Source of the DNA: Minisyncoccota bacterium
GTDB lineage: Bacteria; Patescibacteriota; Minisyncoccia; Phycocordibacterales; UBA6065
Direction of reading: 5' to 3'
DNA: 64,000 bases
Assembly (NCBI GenBank): GCA_041661645.1
Contig: JBAZUA010000003.1
Span: forward strand, 22,841-86,840
Each line of letters opens with the position of its first letter. The first letter of the stretch is position 1. A model generated the notes under the pieces. That model saw nothing but the letters and a program-made list of their open reading frames with translations, had not been told where the DNA came from and ran no database searches. A program made the translations under genes and the position numbers. Below are positions 14,807-40,689 of the stretch, one piece after another.

Positions 14807-15172
14807 TCAGGTGATGGGGACACCCATCTCGATCGGTGGTTTGCAGTTTTCCCCCTTGTGAGGCGGAACCTTGCAGGGAAATTCTTCGCTCGTGTTGCGG
14901 AACAAGTCGAGGCCGTCGATGGCGCTGACCGAAAACACGTAGTCATTTTCCGGGTGGGACTGGATCGAACCATCCTCGCCGATGCGAGCCTTGGAAATAT
15001 CAAACCCTCCCGATGTGTAGCCCTTGCGCTCCTTCGACTTCTTGTCGTCGGGGACGGCCAGGACGGCCTCCTCTGACAGGGGGAAGCATATCCCGTTGTC
15101 TTTTTGTCTGGACGCGATGAAGAATTCTCCCGCGAGAACCTTTCCGGTTTCCCTACAGATGATTTGGCTCAT
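14807..15172 (-). CDS. hypothetical protein
   Basis: 121-aa ORF convergent with holA, shares terminator. Confidence 0.35.
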   Translation of the reverse strand: MSQIICRETGKVLAGEFFIASRQKDNGICFPLSEEAVLAVPDDKKSKERKGYTSGGFDISKARIGEDGSIQSHPENDYVFSVSAIDGLDLFRNTSEEFPCKVPPHKGENCKPPIEMGVPIT

Positions 15173-15316
15173 GTGTGCTGTTTCTGAAGAACAATCGCAC
15201 TATCCCCGTGCGAGGGTGTCGCGCAAACGTGCGTGACTGAAAAACAGTACGCCCGTGCGGGTGTTTTGTCAAACCACCTTTATCTTTGGGGTTTTTGTGG
15301 TATTATCGGTTTCATT

Positions 15317-15389
15317 CCGCCCATAGCTCAGTCGGTAGAGCAGCTCCCTTTTAAGGAGAGGGTCCCAGGTTCGATTCCTGGTGGGCGGA
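15317..15389 (+). tRNA. tRNA-Lys (anticodon TTT)
   Basis: Cloverleaf: acceptor CCGCCCA/TGGGCGG, D arm GCTC..GAGC, anticodon loop CTTTTAA, T arm CCAGG TTCGATT CCTGG; no encoded CCA. Confidence 0.85.
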
Positions 15390-15465
15390 CACTCATGTGA
15401 TAGGTTCGGAGTCCGAGAAGGCTTCTTTTGGCTTGTGGAATAAGCTCGTGTATTATTGATGCACG

Positions 15466-16107
15466 ATGATCACGGTTTTTGTAGACGAATCAGGGAATCT
15501 CGGTAATGATGGGCGATATTTCGTCATTGCTATTATCGTGCCTCAGAAGGGTAAGAGAATATCGAATTTCATGAAAGCCTTTTGCGCCAAGAATAATCTC
15601 CCAGAGATAAAGGCCTCACAGCTCTCGTTTTCTCAAAAGCAGGAGATTTTCAATAAACTCACCTCTGCCAACGATTATACTGTTTCATATATCGTCGCTG
15701 ACAAGAAACACATAGATAATCACCAGTTGTTTAAAGACAAAAATCTTCTCTACAACTATCTGTTCTCGTTCCTGATTAAGAAAACTATAAAAGGCGCAAA
15801 CGAGGATGTGTGTATTTTGCTTGATAACCACTCAACAAAAACAAAGTCTATTAACTCGCTCTGCGACTATATAAAAATTAAGGCGTTTACCCAATGGAAT
15901 TATCGGAACAATCTTCAAATAGGGTATGTAGACTCAAAGAATTCAAAAACTATCCAAGCGGCGGATGTGATAGCGAATGCGATTTATGCAAAATACATAT
16001 ATGGAAAGGATCATTTTTATAACATGCTGACGATTAGCGAATCTATCAAGTTCCCACAGAGTAAATTCGGCCAAGAACCACCTGTTGGTAACCAACTTGA
16101 AACATAG
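15466..16107 (+). CDS. DUF3800 domain protein
   Basis: VFVDESG N-terminal motif and QAADVIA C-terminal motif typical of DUF3800; low-GC region. Confidence 0.6.
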   Translation: MITVFVDESGNLGNDGRYFVIAIIVPQKGKRISNFMKAFCAKNNLPEIKASQLSFSQKQEIFNKLTSANDYTVSYIVADKKHIDNHQLFKDKNLLYNYLFSFLIKKTIKGANEDVCILLDNHSTKTKSINSLCDYIKIKAFTQWNYRNNLQIGYVDSKNSKTIQAADVIANAIYAKYIYGKDHFYNMLTISESIKFPQSKFGQEPPVGNQLET

Positions 16108-16389
16108 GCTGTTTTAGATTAGTATCATAAGTGACATCAATCTTGTGTGGAGCTTAATGCAAGTAAGTGACGTGTGCCGTCACCGAAGCACAAGTAGTCT
16201 TGAAAAGCCCTGTGGGGCTTTTCTGCTTTATGGGGAGTACCACCTTGATAGGAGTCCTTAATGGCGCTTGTGTTGTTGTTCACGCAACACAAGGGATGAC
16301 GCATATTCTCTAGGGAGTCCAGGAGGGAGGTGTTGGTAAGAAAAAGCCCATATATTCCTATATGGGCTTGGGACAAAACCGTTTATGAA

Positions 16390-16821
16390 TCAAGAGTCAC
16401 TAAGCGTTAGGTAATTTTCATGATTACCCTCGTCTCTTTTGACCAATCCTTTTTCTAATAGACGATGCAGGTCATCGCTACTCATGACAAGTCCATAACC
16501 TGGAGGGGTTTTGCTTACAGCAAGTCGTTTGATCACCTCAATAAATAACGGCTCAGAATGCTTTGAAGGAAATACACAGTTCCAGCAAATCAAAGGGTAT
16601 CCATGCAAGAATATCCTACTATGCCCATGACAAGTTGCCTGCCTTCTCTTGAATTCATAATCCCATTCATAATAGGAGAGAATGGCCGTTCCCTCATAGA
16701 GGTGCATTGCTTTATTTTTGGCTTTAAACACAGTAAGCCATAACTGCTTTTGGAATTTGTTGCCCTGTCCACTCGATGGACCCATTGCTGGCGGGATTTC
16801 CATGGTATTTGTTTTATTCAT
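16390..16821 (-). CDS. hypothetical protein (possible metallophosphoesterase-like fragment)
   Basis: 143 aa; CHGHSRI resembles the terminal GHxH motif of calcineurin-like phosphoesterases but earlier motifs absent. Confidence 0.3.
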   Translation of the reverse strand: MNKTNTMEIPPAMGPSSGQGNKFQKQLWLTVFKAKNKAMHLYEGTAILSYYEWDYEFKRRQATCHGHSRIFLHGYPLICWNCVFPSKHSEPLFIEVIKRLAVSKTPPGYGLVMSSDDLHRLLEKGLVKRDEGNHENYLTLSDS

Positions 16822-16991
16822 ATGAGTTTGATGGGAAACAGACGATCCGCACGATGTGGTATCGGCAAGTCACTCGCATGCTTCCTTTCAAACTCAACTA
16901 CTTCAAAGAACTGGATTCTATGAACCCATAGCGCATGTTATGGACTCAATAAAATAGGGGATTGTGTAAATCCCCTACGAGAGAATAAGGA

Positions 16992-17201
16992 TTAGCGCAA
17001 GGAACGGATATAATCTTCGAACACCATACGTTCCAAAGCTTCCCTGGATCTGATAGAAGGATGTTCTCCTTTCATCCCCACACTCTTCATTAGCACCGCG
17101 TCAGGAGTGCCGGGTGTAGCGATACCACGCAGATAATCAAGGGGTATGCCGTCCTTAAGGGCTTCGCGGTATTCGGTGTGAGCATCTTTGGTGTCTTTCA
17201 T
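16992..17201 (-). CDS. hypothetical small protein
   Basis: 69 aa, 9 nt downstream of preceding same-strand ORF. Confidence 0.3.
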   Translation of the reverse strand: MKDTKDAHTEYREALKDGIPLDYLRGIATPGTPDAVLMKSVGMKGEHPSIRSREALERMVFEDYIRSLR

Positions 17202-17210
17202 GGTCCTGTT

Positions 17211-17771
17211 CTAGCCCTCTACTCCCCACGGAGCCGATGGAACAGGAAAATCGTTCTTCTTGACGAGCAGGACATGGGTCCCTTTCTCAAACAAGTTTTC
17301 TCTCAAGCGAACAAGCTCAAGACGCCTAAAAGAGGAACCGACATTGAGACGTGCCACCGCTCGCATTCCGCCACTCCACTGAAAGATCGAACCGAGAGCG
17401 ATTACTTTAAAATCCACTCCTGCCCGAACTCTTTGCTTGGATGATCCCAGACTCAACAGATCTCCGAATGTTCCGAATCGATCACGCGGAAGATTCACTG
17501 TGATATGTTTTACAATATCATATTCCTCCATTGGTTTTGGAAGCACCCAAGCATCGGGATTCTCCCCAAGAATTAGATGCGACTGAACCGCAAGATCCCA
17601 AGCACCTGTCTGAGAGGTACCAAAGCAGAGCGAGAAGAGAATGCTAGTGTCACACTCCATGGTGCTACATAGTGAAGAATAATTACCAGCATTGATCATC
17701 TCTCTGATAACCTGACTAATGGTTTTGTTAGCCACCACTGAGGCATTGGACTGTAGGTTTTGATTGCTCAT
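17211..17771 (-). CDS. hypothetical protein
   Basis: 186-aa ORF in low-GC islet. Confidence 0.4.
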   Translation of the reverse strand: MSNQNLQSNASVVANKTISQVIREMINAGNYSSLCSTMECDTSILFSLCFGTSQTGAWDLAVQSHLILGENPDAWVLPKPMEEYDIVKHITVNLPRDRFGTFGDLLSLGSSKQRVRAGVDFKVIALGSIFQWSGGMRAVARLNVGSSFRRLELVRLRENLFEKGTHVLLVKKNDFPVPSAPWGVEG

Positions 17772-17898
17772 AGGAAAGTACTATTTCTCCAATATTATGG
17801 ATCAAATGTCAATTATAGTCACAAATGGGGACTACTACCCATCGCATTTTCATACATAGCTTGTGATATAAGGGTATATATGCTATACTATTGGTGTC

Positions 17899-18645
17899 AT
17901 GAAAACGGACAATAAGGAAATAATTGATTCTTTGGAGCTGTATGGATTCTCTCCTAACGAAGCGACTGTATATGTGTTTCTCCTCAAAAAGATCGAATCC
18001 TCGGCTTTTGAGATAGCGAAGGAGTCCGGAATCCCGAGAACAACTGTCTACACCACTCTCGAATCGCTTAAACGACAGGGTTTTGTCTCGCGGTTGAGGA
18101 AGAATAATGTTGCGTATTTCACCCCCGAGAGCCCGAACAGGCTTATCGGGCTTCTTAAAAAGAAAGAGGAGGTTGTTAATTCGATCCTGCCTCAAATTAG
18201 AGCAATTTCATCTCGAAATGTTGATGCACCAACAGCAAAGCTTTTTGTTGGCATAGATGGGATCAAGTCAGGTCTTGAAGATATACTTGAAACCCTCAAA
18301 TCACAGAAAATAAAGCAGATACTTGCCACCTCTCAGCCGGACATGACCAAGCATCTACCTAAATATTTTCCAGCGTGGCTCAAGTCGCGTGAGGATATAG
18401 GTGTGTTCACAAAACTTATACTCTCCCATGACGCGCGCGGGTACCTCTTTTCTAACGAGCTGCGAGAGGTCAGGTATCTACCCGAGAAATTTCCCTTTGA
18501 TTGCTCGGTTACGATATACGGGAATAAAATGGCGTTCTTTTCGCTTCGAGATGATGATGCATATTGCGTGATCATCGAGTCGCGCTCAATTGCCGACATG
18601 CTGAGCAAGTTCTTTTTGTTCTCGTGGGAGATGTTAGGGAAGTAA
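17899..18645 (+). CDS. TrmB family transcriptional regulator
   Basis: N-terminal wHTH (TVYVFLLK...IPRTTVYTTLESLKRQGFV) plus TrmB-like C-terminal domain. Confidence 0.7.
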   Translation: MKTDNKEIIDSLELYGFSPNEATVYVFLLKKIESSAFEIAKESGIPRTTVYTTLESLKRQGFVSRLRKNNVAYFTPESPNRLIGLLKKKEEVVNSILPQIRAISSRNVDAPTAKLFVGIDGIKSGLEDILETLKSQKIKQILATSQPDMTKHLPKYFPAWLKSREDIGVFTKLILSHDARGYLFSNELREVRYLPEKFPFDCSVTIYGNKMAFFSLRDDDAYCVIIESRSIADMLSKFFLFSWEMLGK

Positions 18646-18855
18646 GCTGTCTTTTATGGTGTCCACTATGTCCACTTTCTCTCTAAACGAGACACTGTCT
18701 AAACATGCCTTAGGAGTGTCTCATTCACAGGAATATTAGCCCTTCTGTACCCTAGATGTGACAGTGTGCAACACACGCTCAAAAGTGTCGGATTTGTCGG
18801 ATTTTGACCCGACCTACTTGCCTCATTACGCCTGCACGTCCATAATCAAAACAAC

Positions 18856-18902
18856 CCTTATGGCGCGCCACTTTACAATTTCCGAGACCGATTCGGGGGA
18901 CA
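18856..18902 (+). repeat. 47-nt element, copy 1 (ccttatggcgcgccactttacaatttccgagaccgattcgggggaca)
   Basis: Near-identical (44/47) to copy at 20165-20211. Confidence 0.8.
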
Positions 18903-18942
18903 AGCTAAAACCGCAGATTTATCTGCGGTTTTAGCTTGTCCG
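18900..18942 (+). other. perfect ~19-bp stem hairpin (acaagctaaaaccgcagat / atctgcggttttagcttgt)
   Basis: Seen directly; lies between repeat copy 1 and pilin gene. Confidence 0.7.
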
Positions 18943-19178
18943 AGCCGGAGCGATGTTTTTCGCTTCGAAAAACTGCGAGGTGGGGTCGCGGACATTCCGA
19001 GCGACGGCGATAAATGATCCGTGACGACACTTATGTGAGACAGACCGAGAGGGCTAAGCGTGGCTTTGTTTTCAAAGAGTAAGATAAAGTCGCGAATCTA
19101 TTTAGTGATCAAGAGGGGAATAAGGTGATATTTAGGCATTTACCTAATGGGTACGGGGGAGGTAAAATAGCGATACGT

Positions 19179-30913: not shown

Positions 30914-31528
30914 ATGCCCCCATTTCTCGATCCACAGGTTCTCATACAGGCGGCGGGCCTCGCGGGAATACTCGCCATAGTGTTCTCGGAATCTGGCCTC
31001 TTCTTCGGTTTCTTCCTGCCTGGTGACTCGCTTCTCTTCACCGCAGGGCTCTTCGCCTCACAGGGACACCTAAACATCTTTGCGCTCACGCTCGGTTGCG
31101 TCATCGCCGCCATAGCGGGGGACAGCGTCGGATACATGTTTGGTCGCCGCGTGGGCCCTGTGCTCTTCTCGAGGGAGGACTCCTTCTTTTTTCACAAGCG
31201 GCATATCGATCAGGCCGGCGCCTTCTATGCGAAGTACGGCGCGAAGACGATAGTCCTCGCTCGATTCGTTCCCATCGTGCGCACCTTTGCCCCAATCGTC
31301 GCGGGCGTGGGCAAGATGGAATACAAAACCTTCATTGCCTATAACGTCATCGGGGGAACGCTTTGGGCTGGCCTCATGACGGTCGCGGGCTTTTCCGTTG
31401 GGTCGCTCGTGCCGAACGCCCAGAAGTACCTCCACCTCATAGTCATCGGCATCATCGCCCTCTCGCTTGTCCCCATCATCTTCGAATGGTTCAGGGCAAA
31501 GGGCCATCGTGCCGAGCCGGAGCTGTAG
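30914..31528 (+). CDS. DedA/VTT family membrane protein
   Basis: GFFLPGDSLLFTAGLFA and ARFVPIVRTFAPIVAG motifs. Confidence 0.8.
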   Translation: MPPFLDPQVLIQAAGLAGILAIVFSESGLFFGFFLPGDSLLFTAGLFASQGHLNIFALTLGCVIAAIAGDSVGYMFGRRVGPVLFSREDSFFFHKRHIDQAGAFYAKYGAKTIVLARFVPIVRTFAPIVAGVGKMEYKTFIAYNVIGGTLWAGLMTVAGFSVGSLVPNAQKYLHLIVIGIIALSLVPIIFEWFRAKGHRAEPEL

Positions 31529-31542
31529 TATAATGGTCCTCA

Positions 31543-32607
31543 ATGGACTCATTCATAAAACGCTCGTTCCCGATCCCTCACTTTCTCCTCCCTCCGCGTC
31601 TTTCCGTCGACGTGTGTGACGGGTGCCTTCGATTTTTCGAACTCTCGCGTCGTCCCGACTCCTATTTTCCAAAGAATTTCGGCGTGCTCCCGTTTCCTCA
31701 CGTGCACATGGGTAAGCTTGGCGAGAAGGAGGGTGCCGAGGCCAAGGCGGCCCTTGGATCCTTCGTTCGCGAGCGCGGATACAAGAGGGCCCACGTCATT
31801 GTCCACGAGGGCGAGTCATATGTCTTTTGCGTCACGGTAAAAACGACGGAGCGTCGCGAGCTCAGGTCGGCGATAGAGGCCGTGCTCGAGGAGAACGTGC
31901 CGATCCCGCCCGCCGAGGCGGTCTTTGAGTACGAGGTTATCGATGTCGACCGTGTTCGTGGGGAGACGCGCGTCGCCGTTTCGGTTGTTTCCGAGAAGAC
32001 CCTTTCAAACTATGTGGACGTCTTCAAGTCCGCAGGGCTTTCGCCCGTGTCGTTCGAGACCGAGGCGCGCGCCCTGGCGCGCGCCCTCTTCCTCCCTCAG
32101 GATCGGGCGACGCGCGTCGTCGTGTCCGTCGGCAGGAACCATTCGATGGTTTTCATCACCAAGGGGAGCGCCGTCGTCTTCAGCTCCGCCATCGAGATAG
32201 GGTCCTTCGACATCGAGGCCCAGATAGCCGGGGTCTTTGGCATAAGCGCGGACGATGCGCAGGCCCTGAAGGAACAGAAGGGCTTCACCGGCGAGAGCGA
32301 GGATCGCGAGCTCTTCGCCGCCATGTCCCCGGCCTTCTCGACCGTGCGCGACGAGCTTGACAAGGTCGTCTCGTATTGGCGAGGGCAGGGCAGGAGGGGC
32401 GCTGACGTCGAGGAGATATCTGAGATAGTCCTGTGTGGGAGGGATGGCGCGCTCCTCGGGTTTTCCCGCTACCTCTCCACCCCCTCGAGGCTGCATGTCA
32501 GGCTTGGCTCGGTGTGGACGGGCCTTGTCCTGCCCAAGACCATCGTCCCAGACATTCCGTTCAACGACTCCCTCGATTATGGGGCGGTCATAGGGGGTCT
32601 CGTATAA
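31543..32607 (+). CDS. pilM: type IV pilus assembly protein PilM-like
   Basis: 354 aa actin-like; position upstream of pilN/pilO-like genes. Confidence 0.65.
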   Translation: MDSFIKRSFPIPHFLLPPRLSVDVCDGCLRFFELSRRPDSYFPKNFGVLPFPHVHMGKLGEKEGAEAKAALGSFVRERGYKRAHVIVHEGESYVFCVTVKTTERRELRSAIEAVLEENVPIPPAEAVFEYEVIDVDRVRGETRVAVSVVSEKTLSNYVDVFKSAGLSPVSFETEARALARALFLPQDRATRVVVSVGRNHSMVFITKGSAVVFSSAIEIGSFDIEAQIAGVFGISADDAQALKEQKGFTGESEDRELFAAMSPAFSTVRDELDKVVSYWRGQGRRGADVEEISEIVLCGRDGALLGFSRYLSTPSRLHVRLGSVWTGLVLPKTIVPDIPFNDSLDYGAVIGGLV

Positions 32608-32611
32608 AGCC

Positions 32612-33148
32612 ATGTTCACCTTCCTTCCAAAAGACTATCGGTCAGAGGTCCTGAGAGAGCATCGAACGAGGCTCGTCATCGTGTGCCTGGGAATGCTGGC
32701 GGCCGCGCTGCTCCTCGGGGCGATTCTGGCGTTCCCGACCTACCTCGCGGTTTCCTTCCAGAAGTCCTCTATGATCGCGGAGCAGGCAAGGTCGCAGAAG
32801 GAGCTTGACTCGAGAAAAGGGGATGATGTCACCCTCGAGACCAAGCGCATTAAGGCCAAGCTTGCGGTCCTCTCGCTCGAGGCAAAGCACAGGCCGGTGG
32901 TCGCGACCCTTGAACGCATTCTCGCCCAGCCGAGGATCGGGGTCTCCCTCGCCGGCATCACCCTACACAGGGATGCGGACAAAGGGGTCATCACCCTTCA
33001 GGGCGAGGCGAAGACCCGCGAGAGCCTGGTCGCCTTCTCGAAGAGCCTTCAGGGCGAGCCGTCCTTTTCCAGGGTCGACCTTCCCGTGTCGAGCCTGGCC
33101 AAGAGCGAGAACATTGCCTTTACCATTCGCATAGAGTCTAACTTCTAA
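32612..33148 (+). CDS. pilN: PilN-like pilus assembly protein
   Basis: N-terminal TM then coiled-coil, 178 aa. Confidence 0.6.
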   Translation: MFTFLPKDYRSEVLREHRTRLVIVCLGMLAAALLLGAILAFPTYLAVSFQKSSMIAEQARSQKELDSRKGDDVTLETKRIKAKLAVLSLEAKHRPVVATLERILAQPRIGVSLAGITLHRDADKGVITLQGEAKTRESLVAFSKSLQGEPSFSRVDLPVSSLAKSENIAFTIRIESNF

Positions 33149-33151
33149 CAT

Positions 33152-33673
33152 ATGGATCGCCGCTCAACCCAAATAACCCTCGTGTCCATCTTTTCTGCCG
33201 CCGCGCTTTTGTGCGCGGGTGCCTGGATATTCCTGGTGTACGAAAGCAACTCGTCCAGGTCTGACATGGAGACCATTGCCCAGGGAATAGCCGACTCGTC
33301 CGCGCAGAACTCCCGGGACATCTCGACAAAGGTCGCCCTGAACAATGCCCGGAAGTCGCTCGGCGACATTGACAACGATTTCATAACAGAGGCACAGATA
33401 CCTGATTTCATAGGCACGATAGAGAAACTCGCGAGGTCGCACGCCGTCACTCTCGACATAGGCTCGATCAGCCTTGGCGGAGGCCCTGGAGACGTTGCGC
33501 CGCGCCCCCTGGCCCTTCGCCTGAGCGGATCGGCCGCCTGGAAGGGATGCGTCGATTTTATAGCGTCTCTCGATGCCGCCCACTACGCCATCGACATTGG
33601 TGACGTCTCCCTGAGCGGCGACAAGAAGGGCTGGAATTTCAGCATCGAGATGGTTCAATACGTAACAAAATAG
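33152..33673 (+). CDS. pilO: PilO-like pilus assembly protein
   Basis: N-terminal TM, 173 aa, operon context. Confidence 0.55.
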   Translation: MDRRSTQITLVSIFSAAALLCAGAWIFLVYESNSSRSDMETIAQGIADSSAQNSRDISTKVALNNARKSLGDIDNDFITEAQIPDFIGTIEKLARSHAVTLDIGSISLGGGPGDVAPRPLALRLSGSAAWKGCVDFIASLDAAHYAIDIGDVSLSGDKKGWNFSIEMVQYVTK

Positions 33674-33675
33674 GA

Positions 33676-33984
33676 ATGAAACCCTTTCTCAAAAAAATCC
33701 ACGGCTGGCTCGACGATGTCAGGGGGCTCGGGCGAAACCCCGCCTTCGACTGGCACTTCTCGCTCGGCTGTTTCTCGTTTGGCCTTCTGCTGGTCATCGT
33801 CTTAAGCACCGTCATCTATTTCAGGCTCGGATACGCCGACGTCCCGATTCCCCCCGGAAGCACGAGCGGGGGAGAGAGGGCCTTCAATGCCGATTCGATA
33901 CAGAAGACGCTCAAGGGCATACAGCAGAAGAGGGAGGACGCGGGAAGCGTCCCAAAGGCCGTCGTCGCGGACCCTGCGAACTAG
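33676..33984 (+). CDS. small membrane protein in pilMNO operon (hypothetical)
   Basis: 102 aa, one TM. Confidence 0.4.
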   Translation: MKPFLKKIHGWLDDVRGLGRNPAFDWHFSLGCFSFGLLLVIVLSTVIYFRLGYADVPIPPGSTSGGERAFNADSIQKTLKGIQQKREDAGSVPKAVVADPAN

Positions 33985-34097
33985 GGGTTGTGTTTGATTA
34001 TTTCTCGCGGAGGAGAGTTTTCATCAAGAGTCAATGCAAAAAGTGTAACGGCAACGATATAGACCAGAAGCGCAAGCCAGCCTTGCCATGTTGCTGG

Positions 34098-34107
34098 CCC
34101 CCCCCCC
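34098..34107. repeat. C10 homopolymer tract in intergenic region
   Basis: ggcccccccccccaacc read directly. Confidence 0.8.
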
Positions 34108-34170
34108 AACCGTAAAGCTTGGCTTTGAACCAATGGCCCTGAGGGTTATCTTTTAGATATCGTATGTATT

Positions 34171-36804
34171 CTATGAAGATGCTCGTATGTTTATTTTACC
34201 AGCATTAACATTAAGTTGCCTGTTTCTAAAGAACCACTTTGCGACTTCGATCAGCACAATGTTCAACAGTCCGATCAAGACGACACCGATCACCCAATTG
34301 AGAGGCAACGCCACTGTGTTGAACACTGGCTGCAGTCCGGGTAAATAAATAGCCACAGCCATGAGAACAATACCGACGAGAATACCGCCATTAAGATATT
34401 TGTTTGAAAACAGCGGATACGAAAGAATGCTTCTGTCCAAGCTTCGCACAGAAAGAGCGACGAGTAATGTGTATGTACCAAAAGCGGCAAAGATAAATGT
34501 GCGGACAATTGCCTCGTCATAGCCAAGTTGCATCAGTACGTAATAAATAACAAAGAGCAAGGCGCTGGTCGAAACACCAATGGCAAGGATTAGGAATTTC
34601 ATAATCGGATCGAATAGTTTTATCTTACCTCTCTTTAATGGCTTGTGTTTCAGGCCATCCGGCTCTTTTTCAAAGGCATACGAGACAGCTGGAAAACTGT
34701 CAGTGAAGAAATTAACCCAGAGGATCTGGAGCGGATTCAAAGGTAGTGGTAAACCAGTCAGGAGCGACCCACCAATAAGGATAAGACCGTCGGTAACGTT
34801 TGAAAGCAAGTATACAAGCACTTTGCGGATGTTGCCGAGAATCTGTCGACCTTCCTCAATGGCTGCAACAATGGTCTCAAAGTTATCATCGAGAAGCACG
34901 AGGTCGGCAACGCTCTGTGCTACTTCAGTACCTGAACCCATAGCGATACCCACGTCGGCTTGCTTGATGCTTGGCGCATCATTTACTCCGTCGCCGGTCA
35001 TGGCTACCACTTCGCCCATTTCCTGATAGAGCTTGGCAATACGAAGCTTGTCAAACGGTGTGACGCGGGAAATGACAGACAGTCCCGGTAGTCGCTCTCG
35101 CAGCTCCTCTTCTGATAGTTTTGCCAATTCAGATGCATCCAAAACAGAATTGTCATCAACTTTCATACCAACCTCTTTGGCAACAGCCATAGCCGTTCCT
35201 CGATGGTCACCAGTGAGAATGACTGTTTTAACGCCAGCATCGTGCACTCGGCCTATGGCATGTTTGATGCCAGGACGAATAGGGTCACGGAACGTGATGA
35301 GACCATTGAATGATAAATGAGTGAGCGATAAATCTTTTGAAATTGAAAAATGTTCCGTATGAGTAATCTCTTTTGACGCAACACCAAGAACTCGTTCTCC
35401 AGAAAGTGCCAGGGAATCAATTTGCTCGAGCATCACCCCCTTTTCTTTTGCATCAAGCGAGGAATGACCGAGTAGAATATCAGGTGCGCCAAAAAAGACC
35501 AGAAGATGTTTTCCGGACTCTTTAACCAAAGACACAGAGAACTTTTGAACTGAATTAAATGGCATACTCTGAAGGACGTGTTCTTTGGTGGTGATATCGG
35601 AAAACGTCATCCCTCGGAGACCCGCTGAACGAACGAGCGCCGTCTCCATAATCCTGCCGTTCATGCGCCACGATTCCGGATCATCCTGCGGATTTTCGAT
35701 AAGGACATTTGCATTGGTCAAAGCTCGAGCAATAAGTTTCTGCTCATCAATCTCAAAAGGGATGATCTTGGACATCACCATTCTTGCCATAGTCAGCGTC
35801 CCAGTCTTATCGGTAAGAATGACAGTGGTGCTGCCGAGAGCTTCAGCCGCCACAAGTTTTCTTACTACACCTTTTCGCTTTGCCATTCGTTCTACTCCGA
35901 CGGCAAGGATGACGGTCATAGATATCGGTAGTCCTTCTGGAATGGCGGATACAGCGATGGCGACGGAAGTAAGGAACATGTCGAATGGAGAATGTCCAAC
36001 AAGAATACCGATAGCAAAAACAACCAGTGTCAACGCTCCGAGAGCGATACTTGAATAGATGCTGAAGTTGATGATGGCTTTCTGAAGTGGAGTTTTTTCA
36101 TTCTCAGATGTGGCGATGAGCGAAGCGATCTTGCCAAGTTCAGTGTTTCCGCTCGTGCGGCAGACGATGGCGGCACATACTCCTTGAGTCACAAGTGTTC
36201 CAGCAAAGATCATAGAATTCTGATCCGAGAGTCCTGCTGATTCTGGCGATATGTCCGCAGCTTTTGAGACTGGCAAAGATTCGCCAGTAAGCACCGCTTC
36301 GTCAACTTGGAGGTCGTTCACAAACATAACTCGCGCGTCTGCTGGAACCCGATCGCCCTGTGCCAGTCGGATAATATCGCCCGGCACAAGCCCCTCTGCA
36401 TCAATCTCACGTTCTTTGCCATCCCGAATAACTCGTGCTCTCTGTTTGAGATATGTTTTCAGTTCCGAAAGTGCGCGCTCGGCTTTGTTCTCCTGATAAA
36501 AACCCAGGGCGGAATTGACGATAACAGCAACGAAAATAAAGATTGCGTCTCGATAATGTGAAATAGCCAAAGTAATGATGCCTGCAACAATAAGGACGAG
36601 GATCGGTGGGCTTTTAAGCTGATTGAGAAAGATTTTTAACCCGGCTGCCTTCTTGGAGGTACTGATCGTATTTTTTCCAAACGCTGAAAAACGATCCTCG
36701 GACTGTTGTGCGGATAGTCCCTTTTCTGTATCCGTCTCAAATAACCGTGCCGTCTCTTCGAATGATAGATGCCAAAAGTTTTTGTTTTGTATGTTAGAAT
36801 TCAC
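34171..36804 (-). CDS. cation-transporting P-type ATPase (P2-type, Ca2+/Mg2+-like)
   Basis: DKTGTLT phosphorylation motif, MTGDGVNDAPSIKQADVGIAMG hinge, 10 predicted TMs, 877 aa. Confidence 0.9.
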   Translation of the reverse strand: MNSNIQNKNFWHLSFEETARLFETDTEKGLSAQQSEDRFSAFGKNTISTSKKAAGLKIFLNQLKSPPILVLIVAGIITLAISHYRDAIFIFVAVIVNSALGFYQENKAERALSELKTYLKQRARVIRDGKEREIDAEGLVPGDIIRLAQGDRVPADARVMFVNDLQVDEAVLTGESLPVSKAADISPESAGLSDQNSMIFAGTLVTQGVCAAIVCRTSGNTELGKIASLIATSENEKTPLQKAIINFSIYSSIALGALTLVVFAIGILVGHSPFDMFLTSVAIAVSAIPEGLPISMTVILAVGVERMAKRKGVVRKLVAAEALGSTTVILTDKTGTLTMARMVMSKIIPFEIDEQKLIARALTNANVLIENPQDDPESWRMNGRIMETALVRSAGLRGMTFSDITTKEHVLQSMPFNSVQKFSVSLVKESGKHLLVFFGAPDILLGHSSLDAKEKGVMLEQIDSLALSGERVLGVASKEITHTEHFSISKDLSLTHLSFNGLITFRDPIRPGIKHAIGRVHDAGVKTVILTGDHRGTAMAVAKEVGMKVDDNSVLDASELAKLSEEELRERLPGLSVISRVTPFDKLRIAKLYQEMGEVVAMTGDGVNDAPSIKQADVGIAMGSGTEVAQSVADLVLLDDNFETIVAAIEEGRQILGNIRKVLVYLLSNVTDGLILIGGSLLTGLPLPLNPLQILWVNFFTDSFPAVSYAFEKEPDGLKHKPLKRGKIKLFDPIMKFLILAIGVSTSALLFVIYYVLMQLGYDEAIVRTFIFAAFGTYTLLVALSVRSLDRSILSYPLFSNKYLNGGILVGIVLMAVAIYLPGLQPVFNTVALPLNWVIGVVLIGLLNIVLIEVAKWFFRNRQLNVNAGKINIRASS

Positions 36805-36942
36805 GGTTTATTTAGTAGCGGTGATGATTTCATTTTACCAAAAAACCTTCGGATTATATAGGGAAAAATGATGCTTTCTCAGCAACTAAACGCACAAATT
36901 TTGTAATGTAAAAACAACTCAACTTTGACGGCCTCCGCGCCT

Positions 36943-37050
36943 ACCTTGATTGTGCCCTTGCTCGGTCTCGGAAAAAGTAAGGTGATACCCCATAAGGGTT
37001 GTTTGGGAGATTTTAGAGTATTAACTTGACGCACCTCGGTCTGGGACAAG
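36943..37050 (+). repeat. att-like repeat unit 1 (pseudo tRNA-Arg 3'-end-like gtgcccttgctcggtctcgg ... cacctcggtctggg)
   Basis: About 100-nt unit homologous to unit at 37421-37525. Confidence 0.6.
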
Positions 37051-37397
37051 ATTTGATAATAAATGAAAAAGCTGATAATCTTTCTTCTAGATATTGGGTC
37101 CTTCATTGGATAAGGCAACTTGGCCCTTCTCGCAAGAGTCGGATAAAAGACGCAGTCGTGCTCGCTTCCACCTAAGGTGAGGTTCGAAAATCTTTCGGGA
37201 TTGTCATGTATTGCGCCCTGAACAAGAGCTACGGAGCTACTGCCAAAAAGGTTAGATCTCCTCTAATCGGTTTGTAAGGAGGGGAATTGCCGTAAGGCCG
37301 TCCATCCAATATAGTCCACGCTTGACGTGTGCTCGTCCCCTTAAGCTTCGGCTTGAGGGGACGTTACGTTTTATAGAGTCTCAGCAAGTATTGTGAC

Positions 37398-37525
37398 TCA
37401 CCTCAGTCTGTCTCACTAAAGGGTGCCCCTGCTCGGTCTCGGAAAATATAAAGTGAGACACCGTAATGGTTATTCGGGTGCTTTCGGAATAACAGATTGA
37501 GGCACCTCAGTCTGGCCTAACCTTT
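37398..37525 (+). repeat. att-like repeat unit 2 (cacctcagtctgtctcactaaagggtgcccctgctcggtctcgg ... cacctcagtctgg)
   Basis: 5' 38 nt matches the 3' flank/3' end of tRNA-Arg(TCT) at 38142-38176. Confidence 0.6.
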
Positions 37526-38122
37526 TGCAAAAGTACAAATCTTGCGAATCAGCTTCCAAGTATCGTAGAAATCAAATTCGTCGCGGCGTCGCAGATTCCA
37601 ATCTTTTGACGGATGCAACGTGCAGAGAATCGGTATTCCTTTCCAGTCAATGATTTTGTTTACTCTGTCTTTTAACTTGCCTTTGCCAAGTAAGAAATCA
37701 GCGGCAGTGTTGCCAAAAAGAATGATGGCTTCTGGCTCAAACAATTCTATTTCCTGCAAAAGAAATTTGTTTGCCCAAAACTTTTCAGGATTGCCCGCAG
37801 CATATACCTTTGAAAAATGAGTCCAGTAAAAGGCCTTTAGAAATTCCTCTTTGTGCTTCCTATAGTCAGTTCGAATTTTTAATACTTGTTTTTCGTCGTC
37901 TCTGCCGAAGAAAAACAAAGCTAGTATTCGTTCCTCAAAATCAGAATGTTTGTCAAATAGGTCTTTCAGCTTGTTGGTATCCGACGAGGGATCGGAGCTA
38001 ATGATGAGAAATCTTTGCGTTGGAAATAAGGCGTTTACAACTGGATTGTATCGCCCTGAGCCATCGGGCCCTTTTGTTAATTTGATTTTTCTATTAAGAG
38101 ATTCTAATTCTTTGAATTTCAT
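37517..38122 (-). CDS. uracil-DNA glycosylase superfamily-like protein (tentative)
   Basis: C-terminal ...LFGNTAADFLLGKGK...ILCTLHPS resembles UDG HPS motif region; ORF extends to 38161 but start chosen at internal Met. Confidence 0.35.
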   Translation of the reverse strand: MKFKELESLNRKIKLTKGPDGSGRYNPVVNALFPTQRFLIISSDPSSDTNKLKDLFDKHSDFEERILALFFFGRDDEKQVLKIRTDYRKHKEEFLKAFYWTHFSKVYAAGNPEKFWANKFLLQEIELFEPEAIILFGNTAADFLLGKGKLKDRVNKIIDWKGIPILCTLHPSKDWNLRRRDEFDFYDTWKLIRKICTFAKG

Positions 38123-38168
38123 AAAATTCACAACTTTTAACCATCTCGGTCTCTCTCTCACTAACGTG

Positions 38169-38240
38169 TGCCCTCGGTAGGAATCGAACCTACATCAAGA
38201 CCTTAGAAGAGTCCTGTTCTATCCATTGAACTACAAGGGC
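38169..38240 (-). tRNA. tRNA-Arg (anticodon TCT)
   Basis: Acceptor GCCCTTG/CGAGGGC, D arm GTTC..GAAC, anticodon loop CTTCTAA, T arm GTAGG TTCGATT CCTAC. Confidence 0.85.
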
Positions 38241-38280
38241 ATTGATAGAGAATAGCAGGAAAGCCCTGCGTGGTGAAGCT

Positions 38281-38356
38281 TGGTGCGCCTTGAGGGACTT
38301 GAACCCCCGACCTTCTCAGTGTAAATGAGCTGCTCTACCAACTGAGCTAAAGGCGC
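38281..38356 (-). tRNA. tRNA-Val (anticodon TAC), CCA encoded
   Basis: Acceptor GCGCCTT/AAGGCGC, D arm GCTC AGTTGGTA GAGC, anticodon loop TTTACAC, T arm GGGGG TTCAAGT CCCTC. Confidence 0.85.
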
Positions 38357-38518
38357 TTGGTATATGTGTGTGAAGAGTTCCGCGAGGGTAACAATAGCCC
38401 ATATCCGCCCTTTTTTCAAGGAAGGGCCGTGTTTCCTGGGCCGGGGGCGGCGTTTCTTGCTAATTTGATGCCCGCATGTTAGATTGACTGCCACGTTACC
38501 AATTTAAAAATTCCCCGG

Positions 38519-38953
38519 ATGGAAAGCAAGATTATCATTTCTCCAATAGACATGGCCGCTCGAAAGAACCTCGAATTGAGGTCCGGCGACACCGTTCGCG
38601 TGTGGCAGAAGATCAAGGAAGGCGAGAAGGCCCGCCTCCAGGCATTCGAGGGCCTCATACTGGCCCGCAAGCACGGCAGCGAGGCCGGCGCGACCTTCAC
38701 GGTCCGCAAGACCATCGACGGCGTCGGCGTAGAGAGGATCTTCCCCCTCTACTCTCCCGTCATCGACGAGATCGAGATCCTCAGACGATCCAAGGTAAGG
38801 CGAGCGAAGCTCTACTTCGTCCGAACCAAGGCCGCAAAGGAAATCCGACGACAGATGCGAAACCTCCGAACCGACAAGACCGCAAACACCGATGTCGTGA
38901 AGAGCACCAAGAAGGCCGTGAAGAAGGAGGAGAAGGCAGAGGTCAAGGCATAA
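38519..38953 (+). CDS. rplS: 50S ribosomal protein L19 with Lys-rich C-terminal extension
   Basis: [13 protein letters not shown]...RIFPLYSP L19 signature. Confidence 0.85.
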
Positions 38954-39041
38954 TCTCAACACAGACGGAAAAATCCCGCAAATGCGGGATTTTTCTTTGG
39001 CCGTTCGGCGCGAGATCTTTATGAGAATTTCATGACTGATT

Positions 39042-39749
39042 TTGTATGATGGGCGAATGGGAAAAAGAGGGCCGAGGCCGAAGGGGAAGGTGAATATAAG
39101 GTGGTCGCCCGACTTCGCCTATGCGATTGGGCTTTTGGCGACGGATGGAAGCCTGTCTAAAAACGGCAGGCACATATCCTTCGTATCAAAGGATATGGAG
39201 CAGATTTCAAATTTCATGAAGTGTCTGAATGTCGAGGTTCATATAGGAAAGACGTTTTCTGGATATGACGGTAACTCCGCGTACAGGGTTCAGTTTTCCG
39301 ACGTGTTGTTTTACCGGTTCCTGAATTCGAACGGCCTTTTAAACAATAAGTCGAAAACCATAGGGGAGATAGCAATTCCACACGAACTTTTCTTCCATTT
39401 CCTGAGAGGGTGTTTCGATGGCGACGGGACGATCTATTCTTATTGGGACAAGCGGTGGAAAAGCAGTTTCATGTTCTATGTTTCGTTTGTCACAGCGAGC
39501 CCTCTCTTTATGGAATGGCTCAGACGGGAAATGCGGGAGAGAATAGGTGTCTCTGGACACGTTAAGAGGGATAAGAGGGCATCCACCCAACAGCTCACGT
39601 ATGCGAAATCAGAGTCCAGAAAAATCCTCGCGGAAATATATAAAGATGCTGATGCGACGTCCCTCTCCCGAAAAAGGTTGAAATCCGAGCGAATCTTATG
39701 TATCATGTCCGAACGAGACAAGCTGAAAGGCGAAATCTTGACAGAGTAA
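39042..39749 (+). CDS. LAGLIDADG homing endonuclease (free-standing, two-motif)
   Basis: AYAIGLLATDGSL (motif 1) and FLRGCFDGDGTI (motif 2), 235 aa. Confidence 0.75.
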   Translation: MYDGRMGKRGPRPKGKVNIRWSPDFAYAIGLLATDGSLSKNGRHISFVSKDMEQISNFMKCLNVEVHIGKTFSGYDGNSAYRVQFSDVLFYRFLNSNGLLNNKSKTIGEIAIPHELFFHFLRGCFDGDGTIYSYWDKRWKSSFMFYVSFVTASPLFMEWLRREMRERIGVSGHVKRDKRASTQQLTYAKSESRKILAEIYKDADATSLSRKRLKSERILCIMSERDKLKGEILTE

Positions 39750-39750
39750 T

Positions 39751-39831
39751 GCGCAGGTGGTGGAATGGTATACACGTACGCTTGAGGTGCGTATGCCGTA
39801 AGGCGTGGAGGTTCAAGTCCTCTCCTGCGCA
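39751..39831 (+). tRNA. tRNA-Leu (anticodon GAG), type II
   Basis: Acceptor GCGCAGG/CCTGCGC, anticodon loop TTGAGGT, 13-nt variable arm, T arm GGAGG TTCAAGT CCTCT. Confidence 0.8.
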
Positions 39832-39879
39832 CAAGGGGGAATGGCGGCGGCTGAACTGCCGTCGCCATTTTTCCAAGAT

Positions 39880-39951
39880 GGTGCCTATAGTTTAGTGGTA
39901 AAACTCCGGTTTGTGGAACCGGTATCGAGAGTTCAATTCTCTCTAGGCACC
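39880..39951 (+). tRNA. tRNA-His (anticodon GTG) with G-1
   Basis: G-1 + acceptor GTGCCTA/TAGGCAC + discriminator C; anticodon loop TTGTGGA. Confidence 0.8.
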
Positions 39952-39954
39952 CAA

Positions 39955-39990
39955 GGCCAAAAAAAGTCCCCACAGGGGACTTTTTGCGTC
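39955..39990 (+). terminator. rho-independent terminator after tRNA cluster
   Basis: aaaaagtccccacaggggacttttt. Confidence 0.7.
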
Positions 39991-40059
39991 GGTGGTGGCA
40001 ATTTCCCTCGCTTCTGCTAGTATCCGTCCAGGACAGCAACCTCAAACGCACAAACGCAA

Positions 40060-40689
40060 ATGAACACACCGTCAGTCAGATTCGTCAGCCCGGATGATCC
40101 GATCCTCGTCACGGTCGCCAAGGAAGTCTTTCCGTCCGAGCTCGCCTCGCCGGAACTCGCCGAGGACATCGCCACGATGCTCAAGGCGGCATACGGCGAG
40201 CAGAGGGACGCCGCGAAGCCCCTCCTCGTCGGCCTCGCCGCGCCCCAGATCGGCATCTCGAGGAGGATAATCCTCGTCGACGTCGCGGCGGACGGGAAGG
40301 GGAGGGTCGGGGACCTCCGCCTCTACATCAACCCCGAAATCGTCTGGAGCTCCGAGGAGAGGGCCGAGTGGTACGAGGGCTGCTTCTCGACCAGTCGCGT
40401 CTGCGGCATCGTGTCGCGCCCCGTGAGCATCAGGGTCCGCGCCATCACCGCGAGGGGCGTCCTGCCCGTCGAGGAGGAATACTCGGGCTACACGGCCCGC
40501 ATCTTCCAGCACGAGATCGACCACCTGAATGGCAGGGAGTTCACGTCGCACATCACGAACGACGACCACCTGCACTGGGTGGAGAGGGACGAGTTCCCCG
40601 CCTACCGCAACGGCGAGGGGTGGAGAAACTGGCCCAGGAAGTGCTCCAGGGCGAGGTGGGAGGAGATCAAGGGGAAGAAGTGCTGCTAG
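40060..40689 (+). CDS. def: peptide deformylase
   Basis: GLAAPQIG, EGCFS, HEIDHLNG motifs. Confidence 0.85.
   Translation: MNTPSVRFVSPDDPILVTVAKEVFPSELASPELAEDIATMLKAAYGEQRDAAKPLLVGLAAPQIGISRRIILVDVAADGKGRVGDLRLYINPEIVWSSEERAEWYEGCFSTSRVCGIVSRPVSIRVRAITARGVLPVEEEYSGYTARIFQHEIDHLNGREFTSHITNDDHLHWVERDEFPAYRNGEGWRNWPRKCSRARWEEIKGKKCC
40647..40689 (+). repeat. def 3' end (last 13 codons + stop), copy 1 of a 43-nt duplicated segment
   Basis: 39/43 identical to 55872-55914; similarity continues weakly through downstream terminators. Confidence 0.8.

Follow-up and report, generated by a model that had tools for sequence, protein, structure and literature searches.

What is a homing endonuclease gene doing between a ribosomal protein gene and a transfer RNA (tRNA) gene on a bacterial chromosome, and how is it kept there? 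The window analysed here is a stretch of 64,000 nucleotides (nt) from a Minisyncoccota bacterium of the Patescibacteriota (assembly GCA_041661645.1, contig JBAZUA010000003.1, positions 22,841 to 86,840 of the forward strand). It encodes a LAGLIDADG homing endonuclease at 39057..39749 (+), between rplS (ribosomal protein L19; 38519..38953, +; Pfam Ribosomal_L19, E=1.3e-35) and the gene for tRNA-Leu(GAG) (39751..39832, +; ARAGORN and Rfam). We conclude, with a probability of roughly two in three (0.68), that the gene is a mobile homing cassette directed at the tRNA-Leu locus, or was one until recently. On the best reading of the sequences compared, it belongs to a Patescibacteria-wide family of small cassettes that is dedicated to one site, directly 5′ of the single tRNA-Leu(GAG) gene. 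Throughout, labels of the form L### and P#### denote the relatives' loci and the database proteins that were compared in the analysis; A1 is the protein alignment of family homologs and A2 is the DNA alignment of the window with empty-site relatives.

Presence and absence at a fixed site

Empty sites were surveyed in one genome per species (GTDB) using the L19 protein of the window as the query, which is independent of the endonuclease. The scan yielded 80 Patescibacteria loci with 61–89% L19 identity, and counts of presence and absence cover 68 loci in which rplS precedes tRNA-Leu(GAG) in the same orientation. Around 55 of the 68 are empty, with an rplS–tRNA-Leu spacer of 0–183 nt and no open reading frame (ORF). 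Five have an intact endonuclease gene and a spacer of 750–783 nt, two (L066 and L043) retain 5′-truncated remnants in which only amino acids ~150–221 are left, and a few have spacers of intermediate length that count as neither empty, intact nor remnant. Both remnants are truncated at nearly the same point (hidden Markov model positions ~150–221 are kept), which could mean either that deletions recur at this endpoint or that the two share ancestry. The site is fixed and the insertion polymorphic, with intact, decaying and empty states side by side, the pattern that is expected of a homing endonuclease gene. An earlier reading of the window, made from its sequence only, had suggested, as one option, that the gene is an insertion between rplS and tRNA-Leu and had proposed a comparison of orthologous regions; the comparison agrees with insertion and rules out universal presence. 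A universal or domesticated gene had been suggested by the first three homolog loci, and was rejected because the unbiased L19 scan shows that most relatives are empty.

Most species keep the ancestral order of rplS, terminator, tRNA promoter and tRNA-Leu. In a minority of species, a cassette of ~0.7 kilobases (kb), consisting of an optional pseudo-tRNA box, a promoter and the ORF, lies between the terminator and the tRNA promoter. All of the closest relatives of the window by L19 are empty (L009, 89% identity; L012, 83%; L010, 81%), and other carriers have empty neighbours with L19 identities of 100% (L078/L073), 97% (L039/L052), 96% (L020/L031) and 95% (L072/L082). The boundaries of the indel are clean: homology between the window and L009 (blastn) spans 38167–39002 and resumes at 39749, so that the 746 nt at 39003..39748 (+) replace 106 nt in L009. 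The left edge of homology with the empty-site relatives, 39002, is also the end of the intrinsic terminator of rplS (38968..39002, +), a hairpin with a 13-bp perfect inverted repeat (38968–38980/38983–38995) and a T-run, and the hairpin is kept in these relatives (A2).

The position of the gene is constant across a large family. We detected 2,154 homologs, of which the top 120 are full length with 54–81% identity, and a profile search returned 246 clusters at E<1e-30 and 4,058 at E<1e-10. All homologs with a source name are from Patescibacteria/Paceibacterota; phage relatives of the endonuclease are remote (25–28% identity). The first three distant homologs on long contigs each lie between rplS and tRNA-Leu(GAG), with all three genes in the same orientation. 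Scanning metagenomes with the family alignment added 80 more carrier loci, and provided 69 unique loci with enough downstream sequence and 53 with enough upstream sequence. A complete and uninterrupted tRNA-Leu(GAG) gene is directly 3′ of the endonuclease gene in 69 of 69 loci, and rplS is upstream in 50 of 53, all but L139, L146 and L160. The family is thus anchored to tRNA-Leu and not to rplS, which the sequence-only reading had missed, as it had the overlap of the ORF with the tRNA promoter. The distance from the stop codon to the tRNA has a median of 6 nt and a range of −36 to +32 nt across the family.

More-distant members of the protein clade (profile E values of 5e-61 to 2e-37) were sampled at five loci, and all five abut a tRNA-Leu gene. 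They lie downstream of tRNA-Leu(CAA) (L175), upstream of tRNA-Leu(GAG) (L176), downstream of tRNA-Leu(CAG) (L177) and, in two cases, upstream of and overlapping tRNA-Leu(UAA) (L178 and L179). The gene-caller ORFs of these five often run across or into the tRNA and consequently have spurious N- or C-terminal extensions. No pseudo-tRNA duplicates were found in L175–L179. The D-loop AATTGGTAGAC is common to bacterial tRNA-Leu isoacceptors, and this would explain a clade that is specialized on tRNA-Leu genes.

Enzyme, embedded promoter and pseudo-tRNA box

The ORF spans 39042..39749 (+) and encodes 235 amino acids from a TTG codon; an in-frame ATG at 39057 gives 230 amino acids. The 230-amino-acid product is identical to database protein P0001, from a metagenome-assembled genome of a 'Candidatus Paceibacterota bacterium', which starts at the same ATG. 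All homologs align from this methionine, which is invariant in A1, and we therefore consider ATG 39057 to be the likelier start. The protein has two LAGLIDADG motifs. Motif 1 (AIGLLATDGSL; amino acids 23–33; 39123..39155, +) has its catalytic Asp codon at 39144–39146 and aligns to motif 1 of I-Tsp061I, with D30 and G31 invariant in A1. Motif 2 (FLRGCFDGDGTI; amino acids 115–126; 39399..39434, +) has its catalytic Asp codon at 39423–39425, and D121, G122, D123 and G124 are invariant in A1. Both motifs had been named from the sequence, and the profile search corroborates them with a match of the window protein to Pfam LAGLIDADG_3 (E=1.5e-9). Among 85 unique family ORFs, 83 are full length, at least 76 keep the catalytic Asp of motif 1 and 84 keep that of motif 2.

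The best solved relative by sequence is I-Tsp061I, an archaeal intron endonuclease (PDB 2dch; E=5.8e-8, both motifs covered), and the protein also matches PHROG 4645 ('endonuclease', E=9e-30); no NCBIfam family matched it. An AlphaFold model built on the family alignment has a mean predicted local distance difference test score (pLDDT) of 89.6, and its order of secondary-structure elements fits the alpha-beta-beta-alpha-beta-beta-alpha tandem fold. Nearly all top Foldseek matches in the PDB are homing endonucleases or maturases of the LAGLIDADG type, natural or engineered, the best being 2dch (E=7e-12); the matches also include the bI3 maturase, inteins that contain homing endonucleases and the domesticated protein WhiA. 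Pfam domains of the WhiA type or a helix-turn-helix (HTH) were not found in the window protein. With two motifs in one polypeptide, an acidic residue ending each and a tandem fold, the protein is probably a single-chain, catalytically competent LAGLIDADG homing endonuclease; its cleavage activity and its target are predicted. The N-terminal tail MGKRGP(K/R)PKGK (amino acids 1–11; 39057–39089 in the window) is near-invariant in the family, and the model leaves it disordered (pLDDT 68). It is reminiscent of a basic arm of the AT-hook kind, which may touch DNA beyond the core site. Mean column identity in A1, the basic tail included, is 62%.

The gene is free-standing: it has its own intergenic ORF, a promoter-like site precedes its ATG and neither an intron nor an intein was detected. 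RNA-family searches found no intron RNA at Rfam gathering thresholds in the whole window, nor at E≤1 within 38400–40100, and a Pfam scan found no intein or Hint domains. ORF, Pfam and tRNA calls uphold the stand-alone LAGLIDADG gene between rplS and a tRNA-Leu/tRNA-His pair that had been noted from the sequence, as do the Rfam and Pfam searches for the claim that no intron or intein surrounds it. Its adjacency to tRNA-Leu(GAG) also stands; the gap between stop codon and tRNA is 1 nt and not 2 nt as claimed. The promoter-like site (ATGAGA-18-TATGAT; 39021..39050, +) has 9 of 12 consensus matches and ends 6 nt before the ATG, and TATAAT is found ~6–10 nt ahead of the ATG in other family members. 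We regard this site as the putative promoter of the endonuclease gene.

A second promoter appears to lie within the ORF. At empty sites, the rplS stop codon is followed by the terminator hairpin and T-run, TTGAAA, ~17 nt, TATnAT, 10–40 nt and tRNA-Leu. The best promoter-like site of the region in the window, TTGAAA-17-TATCAT (39678..39706, +; 10 of 12 consensus matches), is within the last ~20–24 codons of the endonuclease gene and aligns column for column with the −35 and −10 elements of the empty relatives (invariant columns in A2). Downstream, the endonuclease ORF lacks a spacer of its own: the reading frame crosses the tRNA promoter, and its stop codon falls within the tRNA gene or a few nucleotides short of it. 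Across the family, AAG TTG AAA AT...GC TAT AGT encodes the conserved C-terminal peptide RKRLKI..LAIVG. A promoter-like site with its −35 element inside the ORF was identified in 56 of 78 carrier loci, and whenever such a site is present the −35 element is in the ORF; the same pattern precedes the tRNA in 44 of 63 empty loci. On this basis, tRNA-Leu is predicted to be transcribed from a promoter inside the endonuclease ORF. A search for repeats gave no support for a direct repeat of the promoter flanking the window insertion. We also considered whether the −35 region derives from a T-loop and the N-terminal codons from a tRNA-like sequence; in both cases the resemblance was too weak.

Most family members have a conserved sequence, AATTGGTAGACGCTATTACCTTGAGG(T), upstream of the ATG. 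We searched 94 carrier and 75 non-carrier loci for this box, allowing 5 substitutions and one indel and counting hits outside tRNAs. It was found in 76 of the 94 carrier loci (about 80%), always on the coding strand and ending 13–34 nt before the ATG, and was essentially absent from the non-carrier loci (four marginal or artefactual matches). The box consensus corresponds to positions ~14–42 of tRNA-Leu(GAG), that is, the D-loop and anticodon arm with the GAG anticodon included, and the box is as conserved as the real tRNA, whereas its flanks are not. L170, the only locus of 64 to keep tRNA positions 1–13, has the full 5′ half (GCGCGAGTGGCGAAATTGGTAGACGC...), the first 13 nt of which agree with the tRNA-Leu of that genome at 12 of 13 positions, which marks the box as a genuine pseudogene of the tRNA-Leu 5′ half. 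The complete pseudogene is at L170:2930–2985, and between it and rplS is an extra ORF of 256 amino acids (L170:2114–2884), probably encoding a membrane protein, with weak Pfam matches only. The box overlaps promoter-like hexamers of the endonuclease gene. A stem of at least 5 bp can form in only about a third of boxes and no consistent structure was found, so conservation is at the level of sequence. The layout, two conserved blocks around a variable centre of ~4 nt, resembles a LAGLIDADG target.

The tRNA-Leu genes of carriers and non-carriers differ in their similarity to the box. The canonical tRNA-Leu(GAG) gene has the sequence element AATTGGTAGACGCACTACCTTGAGGTGGTAG. None of 89 carrier tRNA-Leu genes is within 1 mismatch of the box core AATTGGTAGACGC, all differing from it by at least 2 nt; among non-carriers, 22 of 63 are within 1 mismatch and 10 are exact. 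This contrast is suggestive of an enzyme that recognizes the canonical tRNA-Leu D-arm and of carriers that bear resistant alleles.

Taken together with the insertion pattern, these features can be accommodated by the following scheme. The enzyme would cut cassette-less tRNA-Leu(GAG) loci in or near the conserved segment from the D-arm to the anticodon arm, when such alleles are taken up from, or meet, a donor. Repair of the double-strand break from the carrier copy would then install the cassette, and D-arm substitutions in the tRNA-Leu of the carriers themselves would give immunity. The pseudo-tRNA box may serve as a left homology arm, as an uncleavable operator over the promoter of the enzyme (autoregulation), or as both. 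The window copy is an old resident that has lost a recognizable box and is still under strong purifying selection. More speculatively, because the tRNA promoter lies in the ORF and the box is without the first 13 nt of the tRNA, an essential single-copy tRNA would be inactivated if the cassette were simply deleted or if box and tRNA recombined, which perhaps stabilizes the element. A wider proposal is tentative, and we think it possible but doubtful as a whole: that these genes form an undescribed LAGLIDADG clade specialized on tRNA-Leu genes of the Candidate Phyla Radiation (CPR), with D-arm recognition, the pseudo-tRNA 5′ half as a decoy, operator or homology arm, addiction through the embedded sole promoter, which would make the element hard to lose, and diversification by isoacceptor switching (GAG, CAA, CAG and UAA).

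Age, inheritance and rival explanations

The sequence-only reading had suggested that the insertion is recent, and the nearest homolog does not support this. A syntenic relative, L169, carries the gene at the same site with 80% amino acid identity, and the two endonucleases have a ratio of nonsynonymous to synonymous divergence (dN/dS) of about 0.09 at a saturated synonymous divergence (dS) of about 1.4; for the adjacent rplS, dN/dS is about 0.10 and dS about 0.41. These values at a shared site indicate long residence under strong purifying selection. At greater depth, the histories of endonuclease and host seem to decouple. L001 and L003 share 73% identity in the endonuclease, compared with 55% in L19 and 48% in the neighbouring RluA-like protein. 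The opposite is seen for the window and L015 (86% in L19, 49% in the endonuclease) and for L072 and L078 (91% and 61%). Horizontal spread is likely but not proven.

Several observations weigh against a mobile homing cassette or against parts of the scheme. The nearest endonuclease neighbour is within the three nearest by L19 in 55% of loci (median rank 2), an agreement that points to mostly vertical inheritance on short time scales. A Mantel comparison of endonuclease and L19 distances gave a weak r=0.15 (Spearman −0.09), and is uninformative on horizontal transfer because the host-marker control (tRNA-Leu against L19) also had an r of ~0. Co-conversion left no signal, as tRNA-Leu alleles do not track the endonuclease: the allele of the window also occurs in empty loci, the L022 copy differing by 1 nt and the L032 copy by 3 nt. 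Within-population presence–absence polymorphism was not found for the species of the window, since the exact L19 sequence is on three contigs (that of the window, L173 and L174) and all carry the gene. The contrast between carrier and non-carrier tRNAs (Mann–Whitney p=4e-12) is uncorrected for phylogeny, and the centre of the box has a 1-nt insertion relative to the real tRNA-Leu. No recognizable box precedes the window gene or that of L169, with at most a 'TATGAG' trace; taken alone, the window copy is an ordinary, box-less family member. Strong purifying selection would fit a function that benefits the host equally well.

Such a function is the core of one rival, in which the gene encodes a domesticated LAGLIDADG protein, such as a transcriptional regulator of tRNA-Leu(GAG) that would bind DNA at the box and the embedded promoter and would no longer be a mobile nuclease. 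The low dN/dS of about 0.09, the high conservation of the family with its basic N-terminal tail (mean column identity of 62%), the absolutely fixed position with its overlap of the tRNA promoter, the conserved tRNA-like box over the gene's own promoter and short-term vertical inheritance would all be expected of it, and WhiA, among the fold matches, demonstrates that LAGLIDADG folds can be domesticated. However, only about 7–10% of related species have the gene, sisters with 95–100% identical L19 are without it, truncated remnants exist, and relatives, in all of which the tRNA is essential, evidently manage without such a factor. Unlike in WhiA, the two catalytic Asp residues are almost universally retained, and there is no WhiA or HTH domain. 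We consider domestication unlikely, and the specific class of WhiA-type proteins was rejected given the retained Asp residues, the absence of WhiA Pfam domains and the presence of the gene in a minority of species.

No likelier, in our view, is a relic: a single ancestral acquisition in this clade of Patescibacteria, followed by vertical inheritance and lineage-by-lineage loss, with no present-day homing. Remnants and empty sites show that loss happens, nearest neighbours are congruent with L19, the gene occupies one and the same site in the window and in L169, and strain-level polymorphism was not found for the species of the window. Yet a selfish nuclease that no longer moves should decay, and 83 of 85 ORFs are intact with catalytic residues at a dN/dS of about 0.09. 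Carriers scattered singly among empty close relatives would moreover require very many independent and precise losses, and pairs in which the endonuclease is far closer than two housekeeping neighbours (L001/L003) or far less similar (window/L015) are discordant with vertical descent. The sequence-only reading had offered a further origin, a degenerated intron-encoded enzyme. An orphaned intron- or intein-derived enzyme or RNA maturase, left from an intron once in tRNA-Leu or a neighbouring gene, could be argued for from the closest solved structure (an archaeal rRNA-intron endonuclease, I-Tsp061I), from the LAGLIDADG-encoding insertions in CPR rRNA genes (PMC11270868) and from the pseudo-tRNA box, which shows that a copy of tRNA-Leu was once interrupted near position 42. 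That position, past the anticodon loop, is not a known tRNA intron position, and the group I intron-like structure that had been suggested as something to look for was not found in 38.4–40.1 kb, nor was any intron-like RNA even at permissive thresholds. Hint and intein domains are likewise absent, and the whole family is free-standing, with a complete, uninterrupted downstream tRNA in 69 of 69 loci. We regard this origin as very improbable, and neither the class of intron- or intein-encoded endonucleases (no intron, no Hint domains, tRNA-Leu complete in 69 of 69 loci) nor that of LAGLIDADG RNA maturases (no cognate intron at the locus) describes the gene. A mobile homing cassette at tRNA-Leu is the explanation that we prefer.

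Wider neighbourhood and known systems

Downstream of tRNA-Leu, which is the anchor of the family and its presumed target, a sequence scan identified a terminator-like hairpin (39842..39864, +). It is followed by tRNA-His(GTG) (39881..39952, +; ARAGORN and Rfam), which lies outside the element and at a highly variable distance from tRNA-Leu among relatives. Directly after tRNA-His, L169 has a large serine recombinase (Resolvase and Recombinase domains, 521 amino acids) and several small ORFs (L169:3886–6606), in the place that def takes in the window; an integrated mobile element using the end of tRNA-His is the probable explanation. Elsewhere in the window, around 6.7 kb at ~31500–38160 are extra relative to the syntenic L009 and lie between two conserved blocks. 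This segment has a GC content of 0.43–0.47, encodes a P-type ATPase-like ORF with a DKTGT motif (34171–36804, −) and a gene of the uracil-DNA glycosylase superfamily (37517–38161, −), and may be another insertion. A GC-poor block at 15000–19000 (0.43–0.47, with flanks of 0.53–0.58) begins right at a tRNA at 15317, a common signature of integrated elements. The tRNA itself (15317–15390, +) was called 'tRNA-Stop' with anticodon tta by ARAGORN and is a normal tRNA to Rfam (68.8 bits). Its anticodon loop, CTTTTAA, is as in tRNA-Lys(UUU), and a G27–A43 mismatch allows the one-position register shift made by ARAGORN; the gene most probably encodes an ordinary tRNA-Lys and not a suppressor.

Homing endonucleases have mostly been studied in introns, inteins, phages and organelles, and the family described here is chromosomal, in genome-reduced CPR bacteria. 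If our reading is correct, it constitutes a new natural class of meganuclease specificities, for which conserved tRNA sequences are attractive and well-defined targets, and a marker of DNA exchange among uncultured Patescibacteria. It would also be a case of a selfish gene entangled with the expression signals of an essential host gene. In the literature, incompletely covered, we found no description of a free-standing LAGLIDADG family linked to tRNA-Leu, an absence of evidence only; the family is large and apparently undescribed. The enzyme class and the concept of a free-standing homing endonuclease gene (HEG) are well known; the variations that seem to be new are the specialization on chromosomal tRNA-Leu, the pseudo-tRNA box and the overlap of the ORF with the tRNA promoter.

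The closest functional precedent is SegB of phage T4, a free-standing GIY-YIG homing endonuclease in a tRNA cluster, the 27-bp site of which contains the conserved T-psi-C motif of tRNAs (PMC2330249). As in the family, a free-standing gene lies among tRNA genes and HEG-less relatives exist, and SegB, with a conserved tRNA motif in its recognition site, spreads together with flanking tRNA DNA (PMC2330249). SegB differs in being a GIY-YIG rather than a LAGLIDADG enzyme, in a phage rather than a bacterial chromosome, and in recognizing the T-psi-C motif, whereas the family would recognize the D-arm and anticodon arm. A pseudo-tRNA box is absent from the SegB system, as is any overlap of an ORF with a tRNA promoter, and the activity of SegB is demonstrated, that of the window family being predicted. 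Closer to home, LAGLIDADG genes are known within insertion sequences of CPR rRNA genes (Tsurumaki et al. 2024, PMC11270868). These share with the family the bacterial radiation, the protein superfamily and the choice of conserved RNA genes as targets; they sit inside 16S and 23S genes as intervening sequences, whereas the window family is outside the tRNA gene, and the main text of that study makes no mention of tRNA genes.

As a protein, the window endonuclease shares the two-motif monomeric fold and acidic catalytic residues of I-Tsp061I, I-DmoI, I-SceI and I-AniI. I-Tsp061I (2dch) is its best match by both sequence and structure, although sequence identity to these single-chain enzymes is only about 20%. 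Enzymes of this type are encoded in rRNA or organellar introns, in contrast to the free-standing bacterial intergenic gene of the window, which additionally encodes a conserved basic N-terminal tail and a C-terminal helix specified by promoter DNA. Two further systems offer parallels for the arrangement of the cassette. I-TevI represses itself: it binds an operator that lies over its promoter and is similar to its homing site. The pseudo-tRNA box is proposed to act in this way, and its binding is a prediction; I-TevI is an intron-encoded GIY-YIG enzyme, whereas the window family is free-standing and LAGLIDADG. Free-standing HEGs of fungal mitochondria, such as that at Allomyces atp6, reportedly bring a replacement copy of the gene end that they displace. 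There, too, a partial pseudo-copy is said to lie on one side and the functional gene on the other, with the ORF fused to or overlapping host sequence; those elements are described for protein-coding organelle genes with duplication of the 3′ end, whereas the window family concerns a bacterial tRNA gene and its 5′ half.

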